Virus record (IMG/VR): IMGVR_UViG_2737471839_000014
Direction: 5' to 3' (one strand)
From: a virus
Lineage: Duplodnaviria; Heunggongvirae; Uroviricota; Caudoviricetes
Length of the DNA stretch: 24,071 nucleotides
Shown here: one piece after another, positions 16,570 through 24,071 of the stretch
Layout: every line of letters starts with the position of its first letter
Position numbering within the stretch: position 1 is the stretch's first letter
Notes under the pieces: model-generated
Database searches by the model: none
The model's input: the letters and a program-made list of their open reading frames with translations, nothing else
What the model was told of the DNA's origin: nothing
Made by a program: the position numbers and the translations under genes

Positions 16570-16775
16570 TTCATTTTCACTTTCTTAAATCTAACGACAG
16601 ATGGCTAACATTTAAGTATTGTGAAATATTATCAAATGTAATCATCATTGATTTACAAAAGATACATTTTGCCCCGAAAGGATTTCTGTCAGAAACATCA
16701 AAAGATGATGTTCTATACTGAGAACCATGGCAACACGGGCATCTAAAGTGAATATGGTTTGTAATATTTTCTACC

Positions 16776-16988
16776 TCAAAGTGCCACTACATGAACAGCT
16801 GCAGGGCCTTTAGGTCCGTTCTCAATACCAAATTCGACTTCCTGATTCTCAGTTAACGTTTTGAAATCGTTGCTCTGAATAGCTGAGAAATGCACAAACA
16901 CATCTTTGCTACCATCTTTCGGCGTGATGAAACCAAAACCTTTTTCAGGGTTAAACCATTTCACTAAACCAGTCATTTTGTTAGACAT
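16776..16988 (-). CDS. cspI: cold-shock protein, CspA family (CspI-like)
   Basis: 70 aa [38 protein letters not shown]... with canonical cold-shock domain motifs (RNP1-like KGFGFI, VFVHF); ATGATG start at 16991/16988; long AT-rich 5' leader typical of csp genes. Confidence 0.85.
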
Positions 16989-17351
16989 CATTATTACCTT
17001 TTGAAGAAGTTAGCCCTTGGGCAGAATGGTCCGAAAAAAAATATCAGAGAGAAAAACCAACAAGGAAATCTCAAGAGGTACAAATAATAAAATTATAACA
17101 ATGACTGCTTCAGATAATTTTGTAACAAACCAGAACACCATTAACGCATGATTAACCAACCATAGCAAGGATTACTTTTGTAAAGAAAAACACACGAATG
17201 AAACAATAGCTTTATTTATTAATAAAACGTGTCATTCTGTCTAATGACCTTTTATCTTACCCTTAAGATTTCAAGGATTTTGACTCATGGAAGAGTCCTT
17301 TTTATTTAAATTTCACATTCAGCGCTAAAAATAATCCGATTTAATATTAAT

Positions 17352-20132: not shown

Positions 20133-20831
20133 TTTTCCTCACATATGTCATATAGTAAAGGATTATATATACCGTTGTTTTGGACGCTCAAACAGCGAAT
20201 CAGATCAAATAAAACGCACATTTGTTAACATTTACACAAAGTCTGCGTGGGATATTCTGAAAGAATATCCATAATGTGGAGAGAATCTATTGAAGTGCAT
20301 GGTGCCGGGTGCCTCCCGGTGAATTCAGTACCAGCACCTGAATCCACGATTATCCCATATACCTACTCGCTGATTGCCCCTCCGCATAGGGGGATTCACC
20401 ATGCCAGTTTCTTTTAACAAACTCCCCGCAAACCAGACAACAGTCAACCGCCTGAATTGTGAAGTATTTAAAAATTTCTCCCGCTAACTGATACCCGGCT
20501 AACAGTCTGGCGTTTTCTTTTTCAGCAACGGGAAAGCAACAACCACCACACCCGCCACCAGCACACCGTCAGCCAGCACTGACATTATCCGGCTGCTGCA
20601 ATGCCATTCACAAAAACAGTAAGCAATCACTTTTTACCGTAACAGGTGATAATCCAGATATGTATCTACCCCAGATGAGTAATCCGAAGTTCATCCATAC
20701 CACAGGTCCTGGCTATTCTGTTGTACTCCTGAACAAGAGCAAATAATTCTGAATTAGCAACCATGAACTCATCGCAAACCCTCTGTATAGCATCACTATT
20801 CAGAATAATAACGTCTCTTCCCGAAAGACGA

Positions 20832-21245
20832 TCAGGAGTACAGAACAAAACTGTCAAACGGCTGAAGGCCTTTGCTCGTGCTGCATTGACTATACAACAC
20901 CATTGCGCCGGTACCATAACGGTGAATGACGGTTTCGCTGTGATGATAATCGCCGTGTGGCCACTGGCAGGATTTAATATGGCGCAACAGCCAGTCAGAC
21001 AATGCACCAGCACCACCAGCAGCACGAATCACCCGTGCGTTACTGAAAAACGGCAGCAATGTTTTGTCTTCCACCAGCGGCTGGCGAGCGGCAGGGACGA
21101 CCCCGGACGGCAGATTACGCATGCTTTTCGGTTCCGGCTCCACCAGTAACCGGGTATTGTGGAATACCGGCATGGATTCACGGCCCGGCTTAACGATCAC
21201 CAGCCCGAGTTCCGGTACCAGAACAGGTCGAAGTAATACCCGCAC
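20832..21245 (-). CDS. hypothetical protein in the late-regulator (Q) position
   Basis: 137 aa; GTG start directly after upstream ORF stop with GGAGG 4 nt upstream; no recognised motif; overlapped by an alternative-frame ORF (20666..21025). Confidence 0.35.
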   Translation of the reverse strand: MRVLLRPVLVPELGLVIVKPGRESMPVFHNTRLLVEPEPKSMRNLPSGVVPAARQPLVEDKTLLPFFSNARVIRAAGGAGALSDWLLRHIKSCQWPHGDYHHSETVIHRYGTGAMVLYSQCSTSKGLQPFDSFVLYS

Positions 21246-21957: not shown

Positions 21958-21990
21958 TGAAAATAAAAACAAAAACCCGCCGAAGCGGGT
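21958..21990 (-). terminator. intrinsic terminator downstream of hokD
   Basis: minus strand ACCCGCTTCGGCGGGT (GC stem, TTCG loop) followed by TTTTTGTTTTTATTTT, about 70 nt after the hokD stop. Confidence 0.65.
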
Positions 21991-22059
21991 TAAGTGCGGG
22001 TGCGTTGAGGATGCCTGCCACATCAGAGGTGGCGAGGGATTTCTCACTCGCCGGGTCTC

Positions 22060-22215
22060 TTACTCCTCAGGTTCGTAAGCTGTGAAGACAGCGACCTCCG
22101 TCTGGCCGGTTCGGATTCGTACCTCGCAGAGGTCTTTCCTCGTTACCAGTGCCGTCACTATGACGGTTAAACAGATGACGATCAGGGCGATTAACATCGC
22201 CTTTTGCTGCTTCAT
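22060..22215 (-). CDS. hokD: Hok/Gef family type I toxin (HokD/RelF-like)
   Basis: 51 aa MKQQKAMLIALIVICLTVIVTALVTRKDLCEVRIRTGQTEVAVFTAYEPEE, matches recalled HokD; ATG at 22215 with AAGGAG SD; track ORF 22060..22272 is an in-frame upstream extension. Confidence 0.9.
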   Translation of the reverse strand: MKQQKAMLIALIVICLTVIVTALVTRKDLCEVRIRTGQTEVAVFTAYEPEE

Positions 22216-22472
22216 AGCCTGCTTCTCCTTGCCTTTCGGCACGTAAGAGGCTAACCTACATGTGTCTAGCATGAAATTGGCCTCAGATTAATGTTAAGCG
22301 TCTTGCAGGACGCGTAATGTTAACTGGGGCTTTTCTCTACCTGCCGTTGGTGTTCGTGCCCGAGGCAGATAGCCTCAAGCACCCGCAGTCATTCTACTTA
22401 ACTAAGATTTCCCCGCAAACCGTTTTGTCCAGCACAGTAAATATCCAACTAAACCAATGGAGTTCGCTGTAT

Positions 22473-22652
22473 TTACCGCCAGTATTCAATGCACATGACC
22501 GCCATGAACACCCCTAAAAAAAGGGCATTTATATATCCAAATATTAATATCAAAACATCAACTTTTTCCATATACCTTGCTGTGAAGATGATGGGCATAC
22601 ATGATGCGAACAACCAGAACGCAACAAACAAAAACTGCAATGCGTTTTTCAT
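22473..22652 (-). CDS. small membrane protein (two predicted TM helices), unknown function
   Basis: ATG at 22652 preceded by GGGGGA; 59 aa MKNALQFLFVAFWLFASCMPIIFTARYMEKVDVLILIFGYINALFLGVFMAVMCIEYWR; track ORF starts at upstream GTG. Confidence 0.4.
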   Translation of the reverse strand: MKNALQFLFVAFWLFASCMPIIFTARYMEKVDVLILIFGYINALFLGVFMAVMCIEYWR

Positions 22653-23134
22653 TATTCCCCCTACAATCAATGTGCAATAACATTTAAACACACCTCAATT
22701 TAGCCGGACATATAAATATCTAAACCAGAAAAAATCACTTACATAGCGTTACAAACTCTTTAGTCTAAATATTCATCGTAAAACATTCCCCATACTTATC
22801 AGCCCGTTCTGCGCCAGGTAGCTCATTGCCTTATCTGGGAACCTGTAATCAGGTTTCCGGATGCTGGTGGATTTTCGCGTTTTAGTTGTTCATAAAAGTG
22901 CACAGCTTTAACCAGTTCTTCTGATGTAACCGGGACTGGCGGGGCAGTGAATAAGGCCTGAATTTCATAGTTCGGCCTATCGTTACAATCCTCTTTTTTC
23001 GGTACATATTTCCAGTCACCAGACCACTACTTCCCCTGAAAGTCCGTAACGCCTTTTTTTCACGTAGCGATATCGCCATGCCACTGTTTTTGCTTGCCCC
23101 GCCGTTTCATGCCCTTCCTGATAATTAACCTCGC

Positions 23135-23486: not shown

Positions 23487-23891
23487 TTAACTACCGCCCT
23501 TTCGGGCGGCCTCCTGATGTTCTGAGGGTGCAGAAATCCCTCCGGTTAAGGATTAAATTTTTAACAGTGCTAAATTTAATTATTCAGTTCTGGATTTTGT
23601 CACCCTGCGTATCCGCGCTTTCCCGTTACGCTCAATCTGAATTAGCTTTTCTATATTTTTTCGCCTTTCCCGTTCCTCCTGGCGCAAGAGCCTTACATCA
23701 TCTGCCAGTCTGGTTTCTCTTTTCGCCACAGAGAGCATCCAGTCAAATGGCTCCACAACTGCACCTCAGATTTTACAGCGGACCTGACGCTCTTTTTCGT
23801 CAACCCGGACAGAAGCGTGATGGCAATATGGTCTTTCCGATGGCTCATAAAGAAAATTAACCTGATTACGAGGGTCATCCTCTTTTATCGG

Positions 23892-24071
23892 TGAACCGCC
23901 CCGGGTTTCCTGGAGAGTGTTTTATCTGTGAACTCAGGCTGCCAGATCATTGTTTCCGATGGAAGCATAATAAGCTTTTTCTGCTTCTGCCGGAGGAGTA
24001 TGGCCCAGCCTTCCCAGCAATCGTCGATTGTTATACCAGTCCACCCACGTGAGTGTGGCCAGTTCCACTTC
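23892..24071. mobile_element. end of an IS3-family insertion sequence (IS629/IS1203-like), truncated by window edge
   Basis: terminal sequence TGAACCGCCCCGGGTTTCCTGGAGAGTG starting at 23892 matches recalled IS629-type inverted repeat; followed by transposase 3' end on minus strand. Confidence 0.65.
23934..24071 (-). CDS. IS3-family transposase OrfB, C-terminal fragment (5' end outside window)
   Basis: minus-strand translation ...EVELATLTWVDWYNNRRLLGRLGHTPPAEAEKAYYASIGNNDLAA stop; resembles C-termini of IS3-family transposases. Confidence 0.7.
   Translation of the reverse strand, partial: EVELATLTWVDWYNNRRLLGRLGHTPPAEAEKAYYASIGNNDLAA

Follow-up and report, generated by a model that had tools for sequence, protein, structure and literature searches.

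A complete hok/mok/sok type I toxin-antitoxin cassette of the hokD/hokW lineage, residing in a defective Qin-like lambdoid prophage, is the reading that we favor, at a probability of about 0.85, for positions 21964-22419 of the 24,071-nucleotide viral DNA record analyzed here (the whole of which is called the window). Every component by which the family is recognized was found in the sequence: the toxin gene, the regulatory leader, a mok frame with its Shine-Dalgarno sequence (SD), a gene for the antisense RNA Sok, and the complementary pairs tac/fbi and SD/ucb. The hokD cassette is almost certainly a complete hok/mok/sok locus and, as far as its sequence can indicate, is probably live; it is a well-known module in its usual state, and in that sense is already known.

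The hokD gene and its 3' end

The hokD coding sequence occupies positions 22060..22215 on the minus strand and was assigned from the list of open reading frames, from identity to HokD of E. coli K-12, and from the Pfam family PF01848. Its translation, MKQQKAMLIALIVICLTVIVTALVTRKDLCEVRIRTGQTEVAVFTAYEPEE (51 amino acids and a stop codon), is 100% identical to K-12 HokD and scores 81.6 bits against HOK_GEF (PF01848; cut-off 22), which bears out the original prediction of a 51-residue Hok-family membrane toxin resembling HokD/RelF. Overexpression of the HokD coding sequence is toxic (bioRxiv 10.1101/2025.08.07.668861). TadA-mediated A-to-I editing is reported to recode Tyr to Cys in hokC, hokD, and hokE (PMC5630033); the reported hokD editing site, a TAC codon for Tyr47 within a TACG motif, is kept in the window and was read at 22074..22077 (minus strand).

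The terminator predicted to follow the gene is also present: an intrinsic terminator of the hok mRNA at 21964..21991 (minus strand) consists of a stem-loop at 21974-21991 with seven pairs, five of them G-C, and a subsequent run of T. Weak Rfam matches sited on this terminator (isrK at 20.7 bits, CRISPR-DR46, and others) fell far under their thresholds and were dismissed. The 3' untranslated region (UTR) also holds the fold-back inhibition element fbi, CCUCAACGCACCC, at 21998..22010 (minus strand), which pairs with tac in the minimum-energy fold.

The leader: mok, Sok, and two promoters

Between the hokD start codon and the stop codon of the next upstream open reading frame (position 22473) lies a gap of 257 nt. 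The original prediction described it as a non-coding leader of about 260 bp; the length stands, whereas the label non-coding does not, since the leader carries mok and an antisense Sok gene. That a Sok-like RNA and fold-back elements would be found in this leader proved correct, all of them being recognized from Rfam, from alignment, or from the minimum-energy fold. On the hok-sense strand, positions 22210-22384 match the Rfam leader model RF01794 over its whole length (model positions 1-157 of 157) with 107.8 bits, against a gathering cut-off of 59, the match ending at the hok AUG. Individual elements were placed by alignment to the R1-type hok/sok locus and three phage copies.

A mok-type reading frame of 70 codons (22060..22272, minus strand), taken from the list of open reading frames, is in frame with hokD and has the length and frame of mokW. 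Its start codon (22270-22272, minus strand), 19 codons upstream of the hokD ATG, and its SD, GAGG at 22281..22284 (minus strand), are the in-frame ATG and GAGG singled out in the original prediction; the SD pairs with ucb in the full-length minimum-energy fold. In this family, translation of mok is needed to reach the hok start (PMC9841398). The predicted full-length hok mRNA, of about 418 nt, would run from 22384 to 21967 (21967..22384, minus strand), its 5' end being set by the start of the Rfam model and by homology to the R1 +1 position. The putative hok promoter (22391..22419, minus strand), as read from the sequence, consists of a -10 box TAGAAT at 22391-22396, invariant in four relatives, and a weak -35 box TTTGCG/TTGCGG at 22413-22419. 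At the mRNA 5' end lies the translational activator tac, GGGUGCUUGAGG (22373..22384, minus strand), which aligns with R1 tac and pairs with fbi; it is followed by the anti-SD box ucb, AGCCCC (22326..22331, minus strand), which sequesters the mok SD in the predicted full-length fold, and by the dcb box, GCCUC (22247..22251, minus strand), which is complementary to the mok SD region in the processed mRNA and is kept in the Rfam consensus.

On the opposite strand lies the predicted Sok RNA of about 71 nt (22264..22334, plus strand), whose coordinates were transferred from the sokW annotation of AP000422. Both the SD and the start codon of mok fall within it, and at its 3' end a long hairpin (-29.4 kcal/mol, z = -5.2) precedes a run of U. 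The sok promoter (22229..22257, plus strand) comprises a -35 box TTGCCT at 22229-22234, a 17-nt spacer, and a -10 box TAACCT at 22252-22257, and was assigned from identity to the prophage VT2-Sakai, the 44 nt at 22222-22265 being base-for-base the same in both; mutation of the corresponding -10 region silences sokW (PMC8621323). A scan for consensus promoters flagged neither the hok nor the sok promoter in the window, both of which were located by alignment to R1 and VT2-Sakai; they are sub-consensus, as expected of this family.

The open reading frame upstream of the leader (22473-22691, minus strand; 72 amino acids from a GTG, or 59 from an internal ATG) had been taken for a small membrane protein with two transmembrane segments. 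It is indeed hydrophobic, but its status as a gene is unproven: it matches no Pfam or NCBIfam family, its homologs are solely near-identical 'hypothetical protein' entries from E. coli and Shigella, and PGAP leaves it uncalled in the nearest genomes.

Predicted folding of the hok mRNA

The predicted 418-nt transcript folds with an energy of -165.5 kcal/mol (z = -6.6). The tac/fbi-like pairing that the original prediction proposed to look for by structure prediction appears in the minimum-energy fold as a helix of 12 pairs with one bulge, joining positions 1-12 of the RNA to positions 375-387; in the same fold the mok SD is paired with ucb, and the mok AUG is buried beside the tac/fbi helix. 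An R1-type control folds to the same full-length architecture. Relative to R1, the tac/fbi helix has one compensatory change from C-G to U-A and one added G-C pair, each on both sides of the helix, and such differences are what selection for pairing would produce. Substitution of G4, C5, U6, A70, or the mok ATG abolishes toxicity in R1 (PMC9841398), and all of these positions are conserved in the window.

When the 3' end was removed in silico, the 5' metastable hairpin became the minimum-energy fold for the window RNA and the R1 control alike. The complementarities of the open form (tac/ucb and SD/dcb) are present, and this form, when enforced, lies 7-8 kcal/mol above the minimum, compared with 3.5 kcal/mol for the R1 control. 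As a guide to function, the thermodynamic prediction of the switch in the processed mRNA is uninformative.

Relationship to known hok loci

Over 433 nt, the cassette shares 92.1% identity with the VT2-Sakai (Sp5) locus mokW/hokW/sokW. That locus (hokW-mokW-sokW of the Stx2 prophage Sp5 / VT2-Sakai / 933W; PMC8621323; AP000422) likewise encodes a 51-residue toxin and a 70-codon in-frame mok, is likewise hosted by a lambdoid prophage, and has tac, fbi, and sok promoter stretches identical to those of the window. The two differ in five of the last seven toxin residues (TAYEPEE in HokD, VDYESEK in HokW), at about six positions in the 5' recognition stretch of Sok, in their 3' terminator regions, which are unrelated, and in their location, which is the nin region in the window and near the right end in VT2-Sakai. 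[quoted passage not shown]

The hok/mok/sok (parB) locus of plasmid R1 has the same order of elements, namely tac, ucb, the mok SD, mok with the sok promoter inside it, dcb, hok, fbi, and the terminator. Its toxin is distant in sequence from that of the window (HokW and R1 Hok share 44% identity; PMC8621323). Whereas mok and hok are out of frame in R1, with starts 58 nt apart, they are in frame in the window, at 57 nt; the Sok hairpin is 16 nt longer in the window, and the host is a prophage instead of a plasmid. The hokC/mokC (gef) locus, in which the mokC frame is in frame with hok, and the other chromosomal hok loci of E. coli belong to the same family, but occupy different sites, outside prophages. 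In K-12, chromosomal hok copies are inactivated by IS elements or point mutations (Pedersen & Gerdes 1999, as cited in later papers).

Two other copies deserve mention. In the Rac prophage of strain 442/2 (L010, 1638-1851), a one-base indel between the mok and hok starts puts mok out of frame, an arrangement that fits the view that what matters is the translation of mok and not its product (PMC9841398); among the copies compared, conservation evidently does not extend to the amino acid sequence of Mok. The phage record PP818812.1, assigned to Actinobacillus pleuropneumoniae, has an E. coli-type hok cassette at about 95% identity, which suggests a mis-assigned host or contamination.

Prophage setting

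Within its lambdoid prophage the cassette belongs to the nin region, with the replication genes on one side and rem-ydfU-Q on the other, and is oriented with early-right transcription. Relative to the best-matching prophage, that of strain PEC1011, the window lacks 2353 bp at 20894-20897, a stretch that holds a gene for tRNA-Met, the Q antiterminator, rusA, and the last two-thirds of ydfU (DUF968), at its 3' end; the prophage should therefore be unable to express its late genes. Similarity to PEC1011 ends at 23891, and the last positions of the window, 23892-24071, encode the C-terminal end of a transposase of the IS3 family, a sign that an IS has inserted into the early region of the prophage. 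Two Rfam matches at gathering level are usual features of Qin-type prophages: the small RNA STnc100 (111.5 bits; 20243-20433, minus strand) and a cspA-type thermoregulator leader on a prophage cold-shock gene (110.1 bits; 16730-17146, minus strand).

The point at which similarity to other phages ends depends on the backbone compared: with mEp460 it is at 22404, in the spacer of the hok promoter, and with VT2-Sakai just 3' of fbi. The cassette seems to pass from one backbone to another as a single piece of about 420 bp.

Proposed mode of action

We infer from homology to R1 hok/sok and Sp5 hokW-sokW how the locus would be transcribed, processed, held in check, and put to use in the window's strain. 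The weak hok promoter (with its -10 at 22391-22396) would give the mRNA of about 418 nt, in which the 5' tac pairs with the 3' fbi and ucb masks the mok SD, so that the full-length RNA would be translationally silent. Slow 3' trimming would remove fbi, upon which the leader would refold and expose the mok SD; translation of mok, in frame with hok, would then open the hok start, and the HokD so made would damage the inner membrane. Meanwhile, an unstable Sok RNA (22264-22334, plus strand), made from the stronger promoter inside mok, would pair with the mok initiation region, blocking it and exposing the mRNA to RNase III cleavage. Toxin would thus appear only upon depletion of Sok, an event that in the Sp5 homolog accompanies RecA-dependent prophage induction, with HokW speeding lysis and phage release. 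With the Q antiterminator deleted and an IS element nearby, the prophage of the window is defective, and a role in phage release is therefore moot here.

The best-surviving alternative is that the cassette looks intact but is an inert relic, hitch-hiking in a decaying prophage, whether through weak transcription with Sok in permanent excess or through subtle inactivating changes. The state of the prophage, which lacks Q, rusA, and part of ydfU and adjoins an IS3-family element, lends this reading some weight, as do the predicted open mRNA form, less accessible than that of R1, and the findings of Pedersen & Gerdes 1999, as summarized elsewhere, in which intact chromosomal hokA, hokB, and hokC reportedly gave no post-segregational killing and IS-free chromosomal hok loci showed neither such killing nor activation by rifampicin. 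Against it, nothing that would disable the locus was detected: the toxin has the exact sequence of a toxic HokD, the sok promoter does not differ from a working one, and tac, ucb, the mok ATG, and fbi are all conserved. Moreover, hokW-sokW, with its 92% identity to the cassette, functions in a K-12 lysogen (PMC8621323), and the cassette is contiguous in 74% of genomes. We consider a silenced relic unlikely, and a complete and probably live hok/mok/sok cassette remains the preferred reading.

Absence of relBE and distribution in E. coli

In K-12, hokD (relF) is the third gene of the relBEF operon of the Qin prophage and is transcribed from the relBE promoter (PMC3598666). The K-12 and window loci share an identical HokD protein, an identical 3' UTR with fbi and terminator, and the downstream neighbors rem and ydfU; K-12, however, lacks everything upstream of position -14, including the promoter, tac, ucb, the mok start, and sok, and relE-relB-ydfV-flxA-ydfW stand where the window has its leader. 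The arrangement of the relBEF operon, with relB-relE directly upstream of hokD, does not occur in the window: the similarity with K-12 breaks off at 22229, which is 14 nt upstream of the hokD ATG and the point at which K-12 runs into relE, and searches of the whole 24-kb window with K-12 RelE and RelB (tblastn) and with K-12 relE..ydfW DNA (blastn) returned no match. The absence of relBE upstream of the gene, as originally predicted, is thereby upheld, and the relE remnant that the prediction had entertained as a counter-indication did not appear, the same tblastn and blastn searches with K-12 sequences giving zero matches.

Among 5426 complete E. coli genomes, the contiguous cassette was found in 4006 (at least 80% of 21960-22400 covered), the K-12-type relE|hokD junction in 1165, and the leader joined to an IS1202-like transposase in 687. 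An IS-free intact hokD homolog is known in strain NRG857c (PMC7232551), and a review (PMC6379469, citing Ramisetty & Santhosh 2016) states that relBE integration cut an ancestral hokD of about 70 codons to 51. On account of these genome counts, the NRG857c homolog, and the review, the arrangement in the window is to be regarded as the ordinary one: it is common and ancestral, and the K-12 relBE-hokD arrangement is derived. Integration of relBE into an ancestral hokD is, as these sources attest, already published.

A relBE-carrying element at hok start codons

The site at which K-12 and the window part company is empty in the window: the unoccupied insertion site AGGAGAAGCAGGCTAT (22214..22229, minus strand) extends from the hok SD to the 'AT' of the ATG, and the target site GGAGAAGCAGGCTAT, from the hok SD to the start, is present once and uninterrupted. 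In strain VE-V11-M, a 3272-bp insert splits the leader from the hokD coding sequence and is flanked on both sides by a perfect 16-bp direct repeat, AGGAGAAGCAGGCTAT. The insert carries genes for an IS1202-like transposase, ydfW, flxA, ydfV, relB, and relE; its ends read 5'-TGTTAAC...GTTGACA-3', with 20 of 27 inverted-repeat positions matching in an end-to-end alignment. A seed-based search of the 3.27-kb insert for terminal inverted repeats found none, the repeats being imperfect. Members of the IS1202 family have TGT/ACA ends and imperfect repeats of 24-26 bp, and one subgroup makes duplications of about 16-17 bp (PMC10132070; bioRxiv 10.1101/2022.12.17.520857); in sequence, the ends and the duplication in VE-V11-M agree with the family and with its long-duplication subgroup.

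In K-12, a 3.3-kb IS1202-family element with flxA-ydfV-relBE entered at the start codon of hok and duplicated 15-16 bp there; only the right 2.08 kb of the element is retained. K-12 YdfW (49 amino acids; L002, 5266-5415) is 100% identical to the C-terminal residues 398-446 of a complete transposase (L015, 1602-2942); by this identity, ydfW is a remnant of an IS1202-like (ISEsa1-family) transposase and not a separate gene.

The element is found at other hok-family genes as well. On an IncI plasmid, at 68.3-71.7 kb of NZ_CP030003.1, a copy with a complete 446-residue transposase sits at the homologous position of a pndA-like hok-family gene, with a different 15-bp duplication, TGGAGGGGCTATGAT; on an Enterobacter IncFII plasmid there is an IRR-15 bp-IRL junction, the spacer of which is an R1-hok-like SD. 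A scan with a left-end 24-mer, using one genome per species, recovered 16 loci from 16 species. The left flank could be read in 15 of these scan loci, and in 12 it was a hok-family leader ending at the SD/start; the hok targets, spread over Enterobacterales plasmids and prophages, comprise at least eight different sequences, and one of the insertions is inverted. The Rfam leader model lies flush with the element in eight loci, when the previously fetched E. coli and IncI loci are counted with those of the scan. In all copies with both ends visible (2575-6093 bp), the transposase is on the left side and relBE on the right, and the duplication measures 13-16 bp. Three insertions are at non-hok sites. 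The loci compared are the empty site of the window (22214-22229), L008 (7139-10442), L015 (1501-4883), L014 (1501-3810), and L016-L031.

We tentatively propose, at somewhat less than even odds, that the SD/start junction of hok is a preferred site of an IS1202-family unit that always carries relBE at its right end, and that insertion severs hok from mok and sok and places it behind relBE, so that the K-12 'relBEF operon' and 'ydfW' would be remnants of one such event. The IS1202-family papers cited above (PMC10132070; bioRxiv 10.1101/2022.12.17.520857) are silent on the targeting of hok as well as on a relBE cargo, and the choice of hok starts and the fixed relBE cargo may be undescribed.

We take relBE to be absent from the window because its copy of hokD escaped the relBE-bearing IS1202-family element by which the gene was split in K-12. 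The converse history, in which relBE was once present and was later deleted, making the window a case of secondary loss instead of the ancestral state, is conceivable inasmuch as relBE-hokD occurs in 1165 genomes and a precise loss could have followed; we hold it to be highly improbable, as the window has a single seamless 16-mer and a complete leader, with no trace of element ends or relE, as the same element is found in other hok loci with different duplications, and as precise excision restoring the full cassette is far less parsimonious than a copy never struck. More improbable still is a true orphan toxin with no cognate antitoxin, controlled solely by upstream prophage promoters, for which nothing but the absence of relBE speaks, and against which stand a full regulatory leader that fits the family model and a Sok gene on the plus strand that overlaps its target and has a promoter and a terminator. 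The word 'orphan', applied to hokD in the original prediction, must accordingly be dropped: the full cognate regulatory set is there, in the same contiguous arrangement as in 4006 of the 5426 E. coli genomes.

Implications

An intact, never-interrupted hok/mok/sok cassette in the window makes K-12 the odd one out. Annotation pipelines mark the toxin alone and leave mok and Sok unlabelled, so that intact cassettes look like 'orphans'. In most E. coli, hokD is a self-contained module under the control of Sok, outside any relBE operon, and conclusions drawn from the K-12 relBEF operon therefore do not transfer to them. Should the targeting of hok starts prove to be new, a relBE transposon homing to these sites would be a case of one toxin-antitoxin module capturing another, and the hok start would be the first known target for the long-duplication subgroup of the IS1202 family.
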